A stretch of DNA of 29,397 nt, from NCBI GenBank assembly GCA_035568795.1, contig DATMNR010000294.1, positions 1-29,397 of the forward strand, given 5' to 3'. A program made the position numbers and the translations under genes. Shown piece after piece: positions 1,519 through 23,411 of the stretch. This DNA is from Ktedonobacteraceae bacterium (GTDB lineage Bacteria > Chloroflexota > Ktedonobacteria > Ktedonobacterales > Ktedonobacteraceae). The notes under the pieces are model-generated. The model ran no database searches. It worked only from the letters and a program-made list of their open reading frames with translations, and was not told where the DNA came from. Within the stretch, counting starts at the first letter, position 1. Every line of letters starts with the position of its first letter.

Positions 1519-3630
1519 ATGAGCACAACTCTGGGCGATGCATTGGTAGACAGTCAGGCAAAGGGGCGTTCCGATCGACCAGGAGCGCCAGACACTCGTT
1601 TGCAGGGACGGTGGCTTGCTCTTCTTCGTGTGGCGTGGGTTGTACTGAGCGTCCTTGCTTTCATTATCTTCATTGCTAGTCTTCCTGGGTACTTTACGGA
1701 CCAGCTGAAGTCGTACCTGGTCGGCTACGCTGTCTTCCTTCTCGCCCTGGATATTTTCGTCGCATCGGTATGGTTCTTCGTCGCTCTCCTGATCTTCTGG
1801 CGCAAGTCCAACGATTGGCTGGCACTACTGGTCTCATTTATGCTGGTGTTGCAAGGCGCAAATACCACCATCAACCCATTGAATAATAGCCCCTCGCTCT
1901 GGCTGCTGCCGGCAGTAATACTGAACCAGCTTGCTTTCTTTGTGCTCCTCTTAGTCCTCTGCCTCTTCCCGACAGGACGTTTTGTGCCACGCTGGATAGG
2001 TTGGCTCGCAGTGATGTTCTCAGCTCTGTGGCTTGCAGCGGTACTCGGTAAAATCTTCGACTTCTTACCTGTATTGAATAATCCGCTCTTTATTCTTGTG
2101 TTGTACTGCTTATTTGGGGGCTTCGTCGTCGCTCAACTCTATCGTTACCACTCCGTCTCCAATCGAATAGAACGCCAGCAGACCAAGTGGATCGTCTTCG
2201 GAGTCACCGCGACCTACCTCATAGAGTTCGTGTTTAGTTTCAGTTCGGTCCTCTTTCAATCAGTCTTGTCTTCGACTTCACTAGCTATCCTGATTCTCTT
2301 ACCACTTGGGAACGCTGTCCCAATCCTAATTCCGCTCTCCTTTGGCTTTGCGATTCTGCGCTACCGGCTCTGGGACATTGATATCATCATTCGCCGCACG
2401 CTGGTCTACGGCACGCTCACTGCCTGTGTGGTTGCACTCTACATGCTTATCGTCGTCGGGCTTGGCGCGCTGCTGCAAGCACGAGGCAACCTGGGCTTGT
2501 CCCTGCTGGCTACAGGCCTCATTGCCGTGCTCATTCAGCCATTGCACACCCGTCTCCAGCGGGCTGTGAACCGTCTGCTCTATGGGGAACGCGATGAACC
2601 CTACAAGGTCATTTCCCGCCTGGGACAACGCCTGGAGGCGACGCTGGCACCGGAGGCCGTGCTGCCCACGATTGTCGAGACTGTGACCCAGGCGCTCAAG
2701 CTCCCGTATGCCGCCATCAGCTTGAAGCAGGATGGCGAGGACGTGATTGCAACATCCTCTGGCCAAGCTGCGGATGAGCTGACACGCCTGCCGCTGATCT
2801 ATCAGAGTGAACACATCGGCGACCTTTTGCTTGCTCCGCGCGCTCGTGGCGAAACCTTCTCGTCAGCAGACCGGGACTTGCTCGCTGACCTGGCCCGTCA
2901 AGCTGGCATCGCCGTTCAAGCTGTCCACCTGACCACGGATTTGCAGCGTCTGACGACCGAACTGCAATCCTCGCGCACGCGCCTGGTCACCGCGCGTGAG
3001 GAAGAGCGGCGCCGGCTGCGCCGCGATCTGCATGACGGTCTCGGCTCGGTGCTGGCTTCCCTCAATTGGCGTGCCGGAGCATTGCGCCTGCTGCTCTCGC
3101 GCGACCCGGTAGCTGCCGATGCTCTCGTGGTCGAACAACAAACCACCATTCAAGCGGCGATTGGCGATATTCGCCGCCTGGTCTACGACCTGCGCCCCCC
3201 TGCCCTGGATGAACTGGGGTTGATTGGAGCTATCCGCGAACGTGCGGCAAAGCAAAGTGCGCCGACAGAGCGTGACAGCATCCTCGGGCTGCATATAGAC
3301 GTAGTGGCACCCGATCAGCTGCCAGCGCTTCCCGCAGCCGTCGAGGTTGCCGCCTACCGCATCGTGCAGGAGGCCCTGACCAACGTGGCGCGCCATGCCC
3401 AGGCTCACAGCTGTTGTGTCTGCCTCTCGTGCGAAAACGACCTGCTGCACGTCGAGGTCAGCGATGATGGCATCGGGTTGCCGGAGAGCTATCGCGCCGG
3501 GGTCGGAGTGCTCTCACTGCGCGAACGAGCTGCAGAACTGGGCGGGACAAGCGAGATTGCACGCATGCCCGAAGGTGGGACGTGTGTGCAGGCCTGCCTG
3601 CCGCTTTTTACACATGACCAGCAGCTGTGA
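1519..3630 (+). CDS. Membrane sensor histidine kinase (multi-TM + GAF-like + HisKA_3 + HATPase_c)
   Basis: About 9-10 hydrophobic segments, H-box ERRRLRRDLHDGLG, N-box QEALTNVARHA, G1 SDDGIG and GGT. Start set at ATG 1519 (the ORF track starts at 1465). Confidence 0.92.
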   Translation: MSTTLGDALVDSQAKGRSDRPGAPDTRLQGRWLALLRVAWVVLSVLAFIIFIASLPGYFTDQLKSYLVGYAVFLLALDIFVASVWFFVALLIFWRKSNDWLALLVSFMLVLQGANTTINPLNNSPSLWLLPAVILNQLAFFVLLLVLCLFPTGRFVPRWIGWLAVMFSALWLAAVLGKIFDFLPVLNNPLFILVLYCLFGGFVVAQLYRYHSVSNRIERQQTKWIVFGVTATYLIEFVFSFSSVLFQSVLSSTSLAILILLPLGNAVPILIPLSFGFAILRYRLWDIDIIIRRTLVYGTLTACVVALYMLIVVGLGALLQARGNLGLSLLATGLIAVLIQPLHTRLQRAVNRLLYGERDEPYKVISRLGQRLEATLAPEAVLPTIVETVTQALKLPYAAISLKQDGEDVIATSSGQAADELTRLPLIYQSEHIGDLLLAPRARGETFSSADRDLLADLARQAGIAVQAVHLTTDLQRLTTELQSSRTRLVTAREEERRRLRRDLHDGLGSVLASLNWRAGALRLLLSRDPVAADALVVEQQTTIQAAIGDIRRLVYDLRPPALDELGLIGAIRERAAKQSAPTERDSILGLHIDVVAPDQLPALPAAVEVAAYRIVQEALTNVARHAQAHSCCVCLSCENDLLHVEVSDDGIGLPESYRAGVGVLSLRERAAELGGTSEIARMPEGGTCVQACLPLFTHDQQL

Positions 3631-3645
3631 GGAAGGAGAAGAGCC

Positions 3646-4290
3646 ATGGCACCTGTGCGTATCCTGATTGCCGATGACCATCCACTGGTGCGGAGTGGAC
3701 TGCGTGCGCTCCTCGGGGCGGCAGAGGATATGGAGGTGGTAGGCGAGGCGGCGACGGGCGAGGAGGCAGTGACGCTGGCCGCGAGTTTGCAACCGGAGGT
3801 GATCGTGATGGACCTGCGCATGCCAGGCATCAATGGCATCGAAGCCACACGCCGCATTATGCAAGCCCATCCGCAGATTCGTATCCTCGTCGTCACGCTC
3901 TTTGAGGACGACGACTCGGTGTTCGCGGCCCTGCGTGCTGGAGCCCGCGGCTACCTCCTCAAGGATGCCAACGAGGTTGAGGTGCTGCGAGCGATCCGCG
4001 CCGTGAGCAGCGGGGATGCCATTTTCAGTGCTACGATTGCCCAACGCCTCATTGATTTCTTCGCTACACCTCGTCCAGCCCAAGCTGCCCTCCCATTTCC
4101 CGATCTGACGGACCGTGAGCGTGAGATTCTCACCCTCATCGCCCAGGGACGAAGTAACGCCGAGATTGCGCAATCCCTGGTCATCAGCATGAAGACGGTG
4201 CGTAATTATATTTCGAGCATCTTCAGCAAACTGCAGGTAGCCGACCGCTCCCAGGCCATCATCCGGGCGAGAGAGGCTGGTTTAGGGTAA
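3646..4290 (+). CDS. NarL/LuxR-family response regulator
   Basis: REC domain ADDHPLVR...MDLRMP...LLKD and LuxR HTH LTDREREILTLIAQGRSNAEIA...KTVRNYISSIFSKL. SD GGAG upstream; cognate of the adjacent kinase. Confidence 0.95.
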   Translation: MAPVRILIADDHPLVRSGLRALLGAAEDMEVVGEAATGEEAVTLAASLQPEVIVMDLRMPGINGIEATRRIMQAHPQIRILVVTLFEDDDSVFAALRAGARGYLLKDANEVEVLRAIRAVSSGDAIFSATIAQRLIDFFATPRPAQAALPFPDLTDREREILTLIAQGRSNAEIAQSLVISMKTVRNYISSIFSKLQVADRSQAIIRAREAGLG

Positions 4291-20233: not shown

Positions 20234-20932
20234 GTGAAAATCATGGTGGCGGACGATGATCGCGACATGGTTGACATGCTGAGCTACTGGCTCAAAGGGC
20301 ATGGATACGATGTAATACGTGCATTTGACGGCGAACAAGCCATTAAGCGCTGGCGTGAAACATTACCAGATCTTGTCATCCTGGATGTGCAAATGCCCAA
20401 ACTGGATGGCTTCGAGGTATGTCGTCAAATGCGAAGTGAAACCAATTCAATGGTTTTAATACTGACCGCACATGATCGTGAAGATGACGAGATACGTGGA
20501 TTAGAAATGGGAGCCGACGATTATCTGAGAAAACCATTTAGTCCTCGGCAGCTACTAGCTCGCATTAAAGCAATTATGCGTCGCTCAAACAGTGCAAAGG
20601 GGTCCTCCAATTCATCAGCAATTACTGTCGGCCCGGTGACGTTAGATGCAATGCGCCATGAGGTAACTCGGGAAGGCGCAAAAGTGCGTCTAACTCCCAC
20701 TGAGAGCCGTCTGCTCCACTTGCTCATTACACATACCGGCCAGGTATTAACAACTGATATGATTATCGAGCGAGTTTGGGGATATGACGAAGCTGGTGAC
20801 TCCGGCCTTGTGAAAACGCACATTCGCCATTTGCGTCAGAAAGTCGAACCTGAAGCCAACAATCCACAATATATTATGACAGTACCAGGTGTTGGATATA
20901 CCTTTACAGCACCCATCACGATTGAATCCTGA
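20234..20932 (+). CDS. Orphan OmpR/PhoB-family response regulator
   Basis: MVADDD, ILDVQMP, YLRKPF, and wHTH LTPTESRLL...VKTHIRHLRQKVE...IMTVPGVGY. SD AGGAGG with GTG start; no adjacent kinase. Confidence 0.95.
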   Translation: MKIMVADDDRDMVDMLSYWLKGHGYDVIRAFDGEQAIKRWRETLPDLVILDVQMPKLDGFEVCRQMRSETNSMVLILTAHDREDDEIRGLEMGADDYLRKPFSPRQLLARIKAIMRRSNSAKGSSNSSAITVGPVTLDAMRHEVTREGAKVRLTPTESRLLHLLITHTGQVLTTDMIIERVWGYDEAGDSGLVKTHIRHLRQKVEPEANNPQYIMTVPGVGYTFTAPITIES

Positions 20933-20944
20933 GATGTATAGCGC

Positions 20945-20984
20945 GAAGCGATTGAGATAACACATACGTTATCTCAATCGCTTC
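20945..20984. repeat. Perfect 17 bp inverted repeat (terminator or operator)
   Basis: GAAGCGATTGAGATAAC-acatac-GTTATCTCAATCGCTTC. Confidence 0.85.
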
Positions 20985-21005: not shown

Positions 21006-21045
21006 TTCTTAACCGATTCTCGTTATTCTTAACCATTCTTCAACG
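21006..21045 (+). promoter_or_regulatory. 10-bp-phased direct repeats upstream of a TATACT -10 element (21078-21083)
   Basis: TTCTTAACCG (21006), ATTCTCGTTA (21016), TTCTTAACCA (21026), TTCTTCAACG (21036). Confidence 0.5.
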
Positions 21046-21125
21046 CACTCTGCATTTTTTCCATAGCTTTTCCGCAGTATACTCTTCTACATAATCTATT
21101 TTCTTGATCTAAAGGCATCTGTATC

Positions 21126-22106
21126 ATGACATATGTAGAAAGAGGAACGTTAACATCGGCCGTCACATATCTTGATAGTCCAGCAAGCGATCTATGCACG
21201 TGCTTGCCACTTTCCAGACTACATCAGGGGCCTTGGGTGGATCATGCAGAAAATTCCGAACAGTTGACGGAAGTGACTCTGGCAACACCTGAAATGAATA
21301 GTTCTTTGCGCTCTCAACTCGAGAACTACTTCCCACGTTCCTCATCTCTCAGCGTTTTGCTATTGCACATTTCGCAACTTGAGCATATTCATATCACACC
21401 GAAATCAGCGATCTTACATAAACGGCTTCGCTATCACGTTTCAGCCAGTCTCCTGAAACAAATTCTTATCAATGTGCACCGCACGATTAGAAGCAGCGAT
21501 CACATTCTAGTGCATATAGGCGCTAGCATCGCTATCATACTACCTGATGTTGATCAAGAAGGATCACAGGCTCTGCTTCAACGCGTGTATCATAGTATCA
21601 ACCTCCTTCAACCTGAGACAGTAATTCCACCCTTGAAACGCGAAACTGATATTACTTTAGGAATCGGGTCTTACCCCAAACCCGGAGCTTCACTGGAAGA
21701 ACTACTCTACCAGACTGGTTTTATTGCATCCAGGATAATACTGCGGCCGGCTGTTACGACTCAATTACATGGTACCAGGTCGATCGGTGTAGTGGAGGTA
21801 AATCTGTTAAATCGCCATCAAAATGAAGAGGATGATTCTTGTGTTGCTGCTCGCACTAGTGGCATCCCATTCATGCTATTACCTGCGCGACTGTCATCGC
21901 GATTAAAGCATCTCATTCCATATGCTCTGGCGTGTGAACTGCGTTGCGCACCCGTCGGCCGTGATCATAATCGCCTGACTATTGCAATGGCTTTTCCTAC
22001 TGATACACAGGCTATTGATCGCTTGCGTTCGGCAACTGGCATGACCATTTTTCCTGTATCATGTGAAACCAAAGCGCTCGATAGCTTGCTAGAACAGAGT
22101 TGGTAA
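21126..22106 (+). CDS. Degenerate GGDEF-like domain fused to a T2SSE_N (PilB/MshE N-terminal type) subdomain
   Basis: GGDEF fold pattern SLSVLLLHI...IRSSDHILVHIGASIAIILPD...ITLGIGSYP...LEELL. C-terminal GIPF...LIPYALACELRCAPV...LTIAMAFPTD..AIDRLRSATGMTIFPV. Confidence 0.78.
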   Translation: MTYVERGTLTSAVTYLDSPASDLCTCLPLSRLHQGPWVDHAENSEQLTEVTLATPEMNSSLRSQLENYFPRSSSLSVLLLHISQLEHIHITPKSAILHKRLRYHVSASLLKQILINVHRTIRSSDHILVHIGASIAIILPDVDQEGSQALLQRVYHSINLLQPETVIPPLKRETDITLGIGSYPKPGASLEELLYQTGFIASRIILRPAVTTQLHGTRSIGVVEVNLLNRHQNEEDDSCVAARTSGIPFMLLPARLSSRLKHLIPYALACELRCAPVGRDHNRLTIAMAFPTDTQAIDRLRSATGMTIFPVSCETKALDSLLEQSW

Positions 22107-22112
22107 TCAATA

Positions 22113-22227
22113 TCTCACCTGAGAACCGCTAATTTTAACCAAATCACAACTATTCCTCAACACAAAAGCGTATCAACAATGGTTACAATAACATGCAATG
22201 AGACAGTAATGTGTATCACCTGATACA
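22113..22227. promoter_or_regulatory. Two related palindromes (TCA-CC-TGA core), candidate operators
   Basis: TCTCA-cc-TGAGA at 22113-22124 and TGTATCA-cc-TGATACA at 22212-22227. Confidence 0.45.
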
Positions 22228-22291
22228 AAATATTCAGCATTCACTTTTTATCTAAGTGCATCGAATTAGTATATCCAAGGAGAGAACAAAG

Positions 22292-22513
22292 ATGGTCGTG
22301 CAAGTGATCCAGGATGATGTCCTTTTAACATTCAAAGAAGCTATGAGCTACCTGCGGGTAAGTCGCTCTACCTTGTATCGCCTGATGTGGTCTGGACAAC
22401 TTACTGGCCATAAAGTCGGCAGCACATGGCGGTTCTATCGCGACGATCTCCGCGCCTGTGTAGGCAGTGAAGTACCAATGATGAGCATGCAGCCCAGTAT
22501 TGCCGTAAGCTAG
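22292..22513 (+). CDS. Small MerR-like HTH protein (excisionase / HTH_17 / BldC family)
   Basis: LLTFKEAMSYLRVSRSTLYRLMWSGQLTGHKVGSTWRFYRDDL; SD AAGGAGA; 73 aa. Confidence 0.9.
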   Translation: MVVQVIQDDVLLTFKEAMSYLRVSRSTLYRLMWSGQLTGHKVGSTWRFYRDDLRACVGSEVPMMSMQPSIAVS

Positions 22514-22615
22514 CCAGGTTCTCTTTTCTCTAAGCTAGACAATACTCCAATCTTTTCATATATGTATTGAAAAAGATTGATCTCCTCTTATTTGGAGTCT
22601 ATGTATTACGAACAA

Positions 22616-22644
22616 TGAGGTCGAAGGGCAATCGTTCGACCTCA
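22616..22644. terminator. Probable terminator between convergent genes
   Basis: Perfect 10 bp stem TGAGGTCGAA / TTCGACCTCA. A second imperfect inverted repeat lies at 22548-22579. Confidence 0.6.
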
Positions 22645-22679
22645 AATTTCTATTTCAGACATCTTAAAGATATATTTAA

Positions 22680-23411
22680 TTAGTACCGATCAATATACGT
22701 TATCTTCCAGCTTCCTCCTATTTTTTCAACAGTGACCAACACAGGATAGGAATTTTTCGCTCTTGTCACATTCACTGTATAGCTCCACTGAGACAAATCA
22801 GGTCCTGAACTAGAATTCGTGCCAAAGGTTGGCTGCCCTATAACATAAGATAGAAGCGTACCACTCTGTGTATCGCTTGTCTGTACCTGCTTAAGATAGT
22901 CTTCCAGTGTCAAACCGCTAATCTGCAAGTTCTGATAAGCTTGAGCATATCTTTGATTTTGAACATCTTGAAAGTAAGTATTCACAACATCCGTTGCTCC
23001 AGTTTCCTGCGTGATTACGCTATCAAACAGTTGGTACGCTCCCCAGCCGCATAATCCACACGTAGCAAGAAAACCTACACTAAAAATGGAAACGATAATC
23101 CAAACCCACTTGTAGGACTTTTTAATCGGCGCTTGCATTTCAGGATAACGCGTTGGCACAGAAGGAGGAGCTTGAACACCCATCGTGTTCAGTTGTGCCT
23201 GCGTGCCGGGTACGCCTGGCTCTAACGGTAATGCAGGGCGCTCTGCTGGAATTTGCATATTTTGATAATAGGAAGGTGGTGGCGGATAAACCATCCCTTG
23301 CTGATCAGCAGGAAATTCATAAAGTGGTATTGCCGCCTGTTCATTCGTGCCTTCGATTTCCGCGTTCTCGCGCTCTATTTTTTCTTTCGGCTGCTGGCCA
23401 GAGGACTGCAT
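22680..23411 (-). CDS. Single-pass membrane protein: Pro-rich N-terminus, extracytoplasmic NTF2-like (DUF4878-like) domain
   Basis: YPPPPSYY region, TM WVWIIVSIFSVGFLATCGLCGWG, then VVNTYFQDVQNQRYAQAYQNL...LVTVEKIGGSWKITYI. Confidence 0.75.
   Translation of the reverse strand: MQSSGQQPKEKIERENAEIEGTNEQAAIPLYEFPADQQGMVYPPPPSYYQNMQIPAERPALPLEPGVPGTQAQLNTMGVQAPPSVPTRYPEMQAPIKKSYKWVWIIVSIFSVGFLATCGLCGWGAYQLFDSVITQETGATDVVNTYFQDVQNQRYAQAYQNLQISGLTLEDYLKQVQTSDTQSGTLLSYVIGQPTFGTNSSSGPDLSQWSYTVNVTRAKNSYPVLVTVEKIGGSWKITYIDRY

Follow-up and report, generated by a model that had tools for sequence, protein, structure and literature searches.

What is a cyclase-like domain without its catalytic signature for, when it is joined to the docking head of a secretion ATPase in a bacterium that appears to have no such ATPase? 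The question is raised by a 326-residue protein encoded in the window analysed here, a stretch of 29,397 nucleotides from a soil Ktedonobacteraceae bacterium (Chloroflexota). The protein couples a degenerate GGDEF domain to a T2SSE_N domain, and its gene lies between those for an orphan OmpR-family response regulator and a small DNA-binding protein of the HTH_17 (excisionase) type. Judged by its lost signature, the GGDEF fold is unable to make cyclic di-GMP (c-di-GMP), whilst the triad of the primary inhibitory site (I-site), R122-x-x-D125 plus R153, is kept almost without exception. We tentatively read the protein as a cytoplasmic signalling adaptor, restricted to Ktedonobacteraceae and close relatives, which would sense a nucleotide within a transcription-factor circuit; taken as a whole, this reading falls a little short of probable.

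Membership of the GGDEF superfamily is given by the fold and by a Pfam profile match above the curated cut-off (PF00990, residues 109-195, E 2.7e-6, 27.7 bits against 23.8), which spans only profile positions 58-145 of 161. The C-terminal part matches PF05157 (MshEN/T2SSE_N) at residues 246-324 (E 1.2e-12, 48 bits; cut-off 23.1) and also gives profile matches to the N-terminal region of PilB. An AlphaFold2 model made from 34 orthologues, with a mean predicted local distance difference test score (pLDDT) of 80.2, lays the chain out as a short N-terminal extension, a GGDEF-like alpha/beta core, a disordered linker and a beta-beta-alpha-beta-alpha domain. In Foldseek comparison with the PDB, the first domain finds diguanylate cyclases (5llx, 4urg, 3ign and PleD, 2v0n), with probability 1.0 to many of them and a target-normalised template-modelling score of about 0.5. 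The second finds XpsE-N (2d27), PilF GSPII-A (9g1w), the PilB-N/PilZ complex (7lko) and MshE (5htl), all with probability 1.0. The ATG at 21126 is favoured as the start, because C24 and C26 are conserved; the ESM Atlas record holds an internal start at residue 38.

The T2SSE_N domain represents only the alpha/beta MshEN_C part of the domain that heads the pilus and secretion ATPases, since neither the Pfam match nor the model covers the four-helix MshEN_N part. It is MshEN_N, with its two tandem 24-residue motifs (RLGxx(L/V/I)...), and not the alpha/beta part, that binds c-di-GMP (Wang et al. 2016, PMC5013675). In the 326-residue protein nothing matches the relaxed form of this motif given by these authors, and Pfam finds no ATPase domain (PF00437) in it.

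The sequence of the GGDEF domain is informative. With phmmer against the PDB, it aligns to 4urg, a diguanylate cyclase from Thermotoga maritima; no gap falls in the stretch concerned, and RSSD is set on RRSD, IGASI on GGDEF and R153 on the arginine of LLERI. In 4urq, a structure of this enzyme with a mutated I-site, the aligned residues are ARSD, which confirms RSSD as the I-site motif. Amongst 157 aligned orthologues (31-94% identity), R122 and D125 are each present in 156 and R153 in all, so that few positions of the protein are better conserved. At the signature position the orthologues have x-G-[AT]-[GS]-[IAV], without an acidic residue in any of the 157; the GG(D/E)EF of active diguanylate cyclases, with its acidic catalytic residues, is absent. 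R153, which would complete the predicted site, we take to be the equivalent of PleD R390, the spacing from D125 to R153 being that from D362 to R390 of the PleD primary I-site. The arrangement extends beyond the direct orthologues: two from a sister family (354 and 357 residues), which show a weak GGDEF match plus MshEN, retain RRSD and the alpha3 arginine, and a paralogue in the same genome has RKTD with an arginine at +27.

These results bear out in full what the initial annotation had observed in the protein itself, namely a dead GGDEF domain with RSSD exactly five residues before an IGASI at the active-site position, and a C-terminal T2SSE_N alpha/beta subdomain unaccompanied by an MshEN motif or an ATPase domain. 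It had named a lack of RxxD conservation in homologues, or another fold for the N-terminal domain, as grounds for abandoning the idea; RxxD runs through the orthologues, the sister family and the paralogue, and AlphaFold2 and Foldseek both give a GGDEF-like fold. Conservation of an RxxD five residues before the signature, with the alpha3 arginine, supports a c-di-GMP receptor. On balance the I-site probably binds a cyclic dinucleotide, and c-di-GMP is the most likely ligand to be predicted for it.

Table 1. Features of the target gene and its surroundings (positions in the window; aa, residues of the 326-residue protein)
Feature	Position	Strand	Evidence
Orphan OmpR-family response regulator, upstream neighbour	20234..20932	+	REC + Trans_reg_C (Pfam)
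Perfect 17-bp hairpin right past the regulator stop codon, then T-rich tract	20945..20984	+	dG -30.1 kcal/mol, z -7.8
Pair of direct TTAACC repeats (20 nt apart), of which the second extends to TTAACCA-N5-YAAC	21009..21044	+	Same pair and spacing in 9/14 loci
Putative -10 box TATACT	21078..21083	+	Starts 49 nt past start of second repeat; TATA[AC]T kept in 9 loci
Open reading frame, 326 aa, degenerate GGDEF + T2SSE_N	21126..22106	+	Open reading frame list, Pfam, homologues
N-terminal extension, aa 1-54, with conserved C24-x-C26	21126..21287	+	Ungapped orthologues: C24 152/152, C26 151/152
Degenerate GGDEF domain, aa ~55-210 (AlphaFold2 core ~55-206)	21288..21755	+	PF00990, AlphaFold2, Foldseek
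RSSD, RxxD I-site motif (R122, D125)	21489..21500	+	Aligns to RRSD of 4urg; 156/157 each
IGASI, GGDEF signature position, aa 131-135	21516..21530	+	Aligns to GGDEF of 4urg; variable, non-acidic
R153, invariant Arg in helix alpha3, 28 residues past D125	21582..21584	+	157/157; aligns to LLERI Arg of 4urg
Disordered, poorly conserved linker, aa 211-237	21756..21836	+	pLDDT <50 at aa 212-237; mean conservation 0.50
T2SSE_N/MshEN_C-type alpha/beta domain, aa 238-326 (AlphaFold2 237-326)	21837..22103	+	PF05157, profile matches, Foldseek
HTH_17 promoter: TTAACCA-N5-YAAC, then GGTTAC/TACAAT (-10)	22135..22189	+	12/14 loci
Small HTH_17 (excisionase-type) DNA-binding protein, downstream neighbour	22256..22513	+	PF12728, E 2.2e-13

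The fusion is not a product of chance, since some 477 full-length homologues of about 326 residues exist; those that are named all come from Ktedonobacteraceae. An exhaustive search gives 57 clusters at E <1e-30, and a search of the ESM Atlas returns the same Chloroflexota clusters only, under generic cluster names. The family is uncharacterised and its database names are generic. In our sample of 121 genomes of the class (one of them, G056, is unpublished and counts as one unit in the tallies, with no claim resting on it), the taxonomic family to which the window belongs has matches in 76 of its 78 genomes, the sister family f4 in all four, a family f3 in 6 of 31 and a family f2 in none of seven. 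Full-length orthologues occur in most genera of the window's family; the f3 matches comprise the C-terminal domain only. A paralogue of 278-300 residues, about 30% identical over residues 110-324, accompanies it in most genomes. T2SSE_N domains number two or three per genome and always lie in open reading frames of 150-350 residues without an ATPase. The assembly that holds the window is 86% complete, with an estimated contamination of 4.3%, and claims of absence lean on its relatives.

The paralogue of the present genome (G000, contig C28:7796-8692; locus L036, 1297-2193) has 298 residues, or 278 from an internal methionine, and combines RKTD at the I-site and GHTLY at the signature with a T2SSE_N domain. 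Genes for an NAD-dependent epimerase and a SIS-domain protein follow it.

Sources for a dinucleotide ligand are few. The cyclase repertoire of the assembly consists of one GGDEF-EAL protein (contig C74) and one protein of 360 residues (contig C83) with a receiver (REC) domain and a GGDDF signature. The REC-GGDDF domain is present in 116 of the 121 genomes, nearly always in single copy, and none of the 31 of high quality lacks it, which makes the protein a candidate for the core cyclic-dinucleotide synthase of Ktedonobacteria; its C-terminal half is atypical. A GGDDF enzyme of Geobacter, GSU1937, is active and makes cGAMP and c-di-GMP (PMC8835794). Because a GGDDF enzyme can be active and the REC-GGDDF protein is near-universal, a cyclic dinucleotide is plausibly made in all these organisms. 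As for receptors, five genomes yielded no PilZ domain, nor was any MshEN_N motif found, so that the dead GGDEF proteins are the only recognisable candidates for c-di-GMP receptors. If binding is true, the Ktedonobacteraceae would have no recognisable c-di-GMP receptors other than this family and its paralogue. Our literature search turned up no paper on c-di-GMP signalling in Ktedonobacteria, texts that pair the two words treating other subjects. The REC-GGDEF-like protein of this genome (G000, contig C83:1262-2344, locus L034) has an insertion past its GGDDF and matches the Pfam profile at positions 20-89 only.

In the mechanism that we propose, a cyclic dinucleotide, most likely c-di-GMP, would bind the predicted I-site, its source being the near-universal REC-GGDDF cyclase-like protein and, in this genome, also the GGDEF-EAL protein. 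The ligand would then alter the way in which the tethered T2SSE_N domain engages a partner. Since these genomes are without pilus and type II secretion system (T2SS) machinery, as detailed below, that partner should be something else, and the best candidates are the upstream OmpR-type regulator and the downstream HTH_17 protein. That one of these neighbouring transcription factors is in fact the partner is possible, if somewhat doubtful. The protein would in this way serve as a nucleotide-dependent connector or feedback element of a transcription-factor circuit.

Several known systems are close to this protein. PelD of Pseudomonas aeruginosa and BcsE of enterobacteria sense c-di-GMP at the I-site of a degenerate GGDEF domain; as in the protein described here, the signature is lost and RxxD kept, and they are adaptors that relay the signal to a partner (PMC7439463). 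However, the machines that PelD and BcsE serve secrete exopolysaccharide, and the two proteins contain transmembrane/GAF or REC*-like modules, whereas the present protein combines an N-terminal CxC extension with a T2SSE_N output and is encoded between two transcription-factor genes, and no sequence relationship to PelD or BcsE is detectable beyond the GGDEF superfamily. PopA of Caulobacter, a REC-REC-GGDEF protein whose GGDEF domain is dead but has an I-site, is a c-di-GMP-dependent recruitment adaptor in ClpXP targeting at the pole; unlike PopA, the present protein has no receiver domains. On the side of the output domain, the MshEN_C alpha/beta subdomain of the N-terminal domains of MshE, PilB and GspE corresponds to the C-terminal 90 residues here (PMC5013675), but in our protein MshEN_N and the ATPase are missing, the domain is C-terminal and the hosts have no pilus or secretion machinery. 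A further parallel is FimX-PilZ-PilB of Xanthomonas, in which a degenerate-domain c-di-GMP sensor is coupled through protein contacts to a T2SSE_N-type domain (7lko; PMC10333796). In that system the T2SSE_N domain is part of the pilus ATPase and the sensor a protein of its own, whereas here a single chain holds both, with no pilus and no PilZ. Dead-GGDEF I-site readers and T2SSE_N heads of pilus and secretion ATPases, each known separately, are fused here in one small protein. If the proposal is true, the T2SSE_N fold would be a general docking module, usable outside secretion systems.

The surroundings of the gene are what point to a transcriptional role. Of 14 loci compared, each from a different genus, 13 share one gene order: cytidine deaminase (-), OmpR-type regulator (+), target (+), HTH_17 (+), a 243-residue membrane protein (-) and a methyltransferase (+). 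Across these loci the regulator is 88-97% identical (13 of 14 loci) and the HTH_17 protein 75-95% (all 14), the figure for the GGDEF-T2SSE_N protein being 37-82%. The best NCBIfam matches of the regulator are MtrA, RpaB and YycF, all below their cut-offs, and no kinase adjoins its gene. A regulator orthologue, about 69% identical, again adjoins the GGDEF-T2SSE_N gene in the sister family. Regulator orthologues co-occur with the GGDEF-T2SSE_N family, being found in 73 of 78 genomes of the window's family (f1), 4 of 4 of f4, 9 of 31 of f3 and 0 of 7 of f2; the genomes are kin, and this is not an independent statistical test. The HTH_17 protein gave no match by sequence to a solved BldC structure, and to call it 'BldC-like' rests on membership of the Pfam family only.

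Regulatory sequences may also tie the genes together. Consensus scans for promoters and terminators were uninformative and missed the A+T-rich hairpin behind the regulator gene, which is likely to be a terminator. Downstream of it, the pair of TTAACC repeats is a putative activator site for the promoter of the target gene. The nine loci with the pair belong to different genera and have spacers that otherwise differ in length and sequence. At the HTH_17 promoter, too, a TAC(A/T)AT box starts 49 nt past TTAACCA-N5-YAAC. This identical geometry of the promoter elements argues for a single DNA-binding protein controlling both genes, which are probably co-regulated. The upstream response regulator plausibly controls both promoters, and half-sites with a period of about 11 nt would fit a regulator of the OmpR family. 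The conserved position of the target gene between two very conserved transcription factors, together with a shared promoter element, could offer an entry to second-messenger signalling in the Chloroflexota. Hardly any difference between genera is seen in the block that surrounds the HTH_17 promoter and contains ATGCAATGAGACA. No Rfam family, and in particular no c-di-GMP riboswitch, was found in the window. Contigs of a soil metatranscriptome cover 21227-21460, 21806-22040 and the HTH_17 gene with 0-1 mismatch, and the same assembly leaves the 21044-21180 spacer and 22551-22961 uncovered. Such coverage would fit transcription, with DNA carry-over also possible, and the gap at the spacer is in keeping with the likely terminator.

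Several observations weigh against a nucleotide sensor in a transcription-factor circuit. The hairpin lies between the regulator and the target, which are therefore separate transcription units and not an operon. TTAACCA-N5-YAAC is not over-represented genome-wide, with eight matches against seven for the control, and the spacings of TTAACC pairs are too few for statistics. In one genus (g3; eight genomes, one of them closed) the target gene is missing and the regulator and HTH_17 genes are adjacent, so that the circuit works without the GGDEF-T2SSE_N protein, at least in this genus. In f3 the T2SSE_N genes do not lie beside the regulator. On the side of the ligand, a closed relative (G014) has an orthologue but no canonical GGDEF or EAL protein, only REC-GGDDF and a 727-residue protein with a weak partial match, and the ligand may therefore not be c-di-GMP. 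The RxxD...R triad itself could have been kept for another ligand or for structural reasons.

The first alternative starts from this last possibility, in combination with a second set of conserved residues. C24, C26, H81, H104, C274 and C313 are each conserved in 151-156 of 157 orthologues (codons for CxC at 21195-21203, for H81 at 21366-21368 and for H104 at 21435-21437). H81 is presumably at the place of the metal-binding aspartate of strand beta1 in PleD, beta1 reading LLLHISQ here, in a region outside the Pfam alignment. Both sister-family orthologues are without H81, H104 and C313; one is also without CxC and the other keeps its first cysteine only. This suggests a lineage-specific metal or redox site, and the protein could be a nucleotide-independent scaffold built on such a site (C24, C26, H81, H104 and C313), with RxxD...R serving the fold or contacts. 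However, the orthologues that lack the Cys/His set keep RxxD...R, and the I-site triad is thus the older and more general constraint. A scaffold of this kind we regard as unlikely, although metal or redox sensing and nucleotide sensing are not mutually exclusive.

A second alternative keeps the receptor and changes what it receives. The ligand could be 3'3'-cGAMP, another cyclic dinucleotide or (p)ppGpp, or the protein could be a pseudo-enzyme partner that regulates the cyclase domain of the REC-GGDDF protein. The only class-universal cyclase-like gene does have GGDDF and an atypical C-terminal half, the characterised GGDDF enzyme makes cGAMP besides c-di-GMP (PMC8835794), and PleD has been crystallised with c-di-GMP and ppGpp (PDB 9g85, amongst the Foldseek matches). 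Set against these points, RxxD...R is the canonical I-site for c-di-GMP, the REC-GGDDF and target genes are unlinked (contigs C83 and C294) and nothing points to GGDEF heterodimers. We judge that neither version has more than a small chance of being right.

It is conceivable that both kinds of input are combined. In the mycelial, spore-forming Ktedonobacteraceae the protein might be a dual-input sensor, with a dinucleotide at the I-site and a metal or redox signal at the Cys/His residues in the ex-catalytic pocket, and with its head reused to bind the OmpR-type regulator or the BldC-like HTH protein. This would constitute a developmental switch under nucleotide control, of separate origin from BldD and RsiG-WhiG, the c-di-GMP switches of Streptomyces, an idea that is speculative and quite improbable.

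There remains the docking proposed in the initial annotation, in which a c-di-GMP-gated adaptor or decoy would engage a type IV pilus (T4P) or T2SS platform (PilM/GspL) through its T2SSE_N domain. The domain shares homology with N1 of GspE and PilB, a domain of this kind contacts PilZ in 7lko, and the N1 domain of GspE contacts GspL. However, the machinery was not found. The T2SSE ATPase (PF00437) gives no match above cut-off in the assembly or in the four of four genomes of the genus, and within the family no more than 27 genomes out of 81 have one; the one such ATPase that was examined (G015, 593 residues) has no T2SSE_N head. Five genomes, the closed G014 amongst them, have no PilC/GspF (T2SSF, PF00482), and in the same number, again with G014, PilM (PF11104) gives nothing above cut-off, its sub-threshold matches being one 456-residue open reading frame that we take to be FtsA-like. 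A protein found in 76 of 78 genomes cannot depend on pilus machinery when the ATPase is found in a third at most, and the co-occurrence with PilB/GspE, PilC/GspF and PilM/GspL that docking would entail is not seen, in G014 as elsewhere. The search for T4P genes that was suggested at the outset has thus come back empty for a PilB/GspE-type ATPase, PilC and PilM alike in the assembly, the genus and closed relatives. Of the adaptor first proposed, the c-di-GMP-receptor half is retained on the strength of I-site conservation and the docking half is given up. With T4P and T2SS parts absent or unrelated in the assembly, genus, family and closed relatives, pilus docking is rejected for this lineage as very improbable.

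Some further observations concern the neighbouring genes. At two loci, L046 (G057) and L047 (G025), the gene immediately behind that of a paralogous OmpR regulator (about 51% identical) encodes a nearly bare T2SSE_N protein of 148-156 residues. The pairing of regulator and T2SSE_N thus recurs a second time, if in part; this recurrence is missing in two other genomes, G014 and the present assembly. At L042 (G011:C1:409000-418700) the regulator and HTH_17 genes are about 490 bp apart with no trace of a GGDEF-T2SSE_N gene, marking a natural deletion lineage. A second regulator in this assembly (G000, contig C480:4058-4747) is 69% identical to that of the window, as are the sister-family orthologues, and could be a paralogue or bin contamination.

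The gene at 22680-23411 (-) encodes the 243-residue protein, which matches no Pfam family; its N-terminus is rich in Pro and Gln, and a single membrane helix is predicted. In most loci it is conserved beside HTH_17 in divergent orientation, with 27-75% identity. Further intergenic tandem repeats of the CTTAACC type occur in this genome (G000) at C86:167, C237:6995-7048 and C344:1865-1891, with spacings of 11, 22 and 31 nt. These three extra copies precede genes for secreted or membrane proteins, those on C86 and C344 having signal-peptide-like N-termini, and are possible further members of the regulon. Elsewhere in the window, positions 3001-4000 stand out with a G+C content of 0.64, compared with 0.41-0.57 for the remainder.

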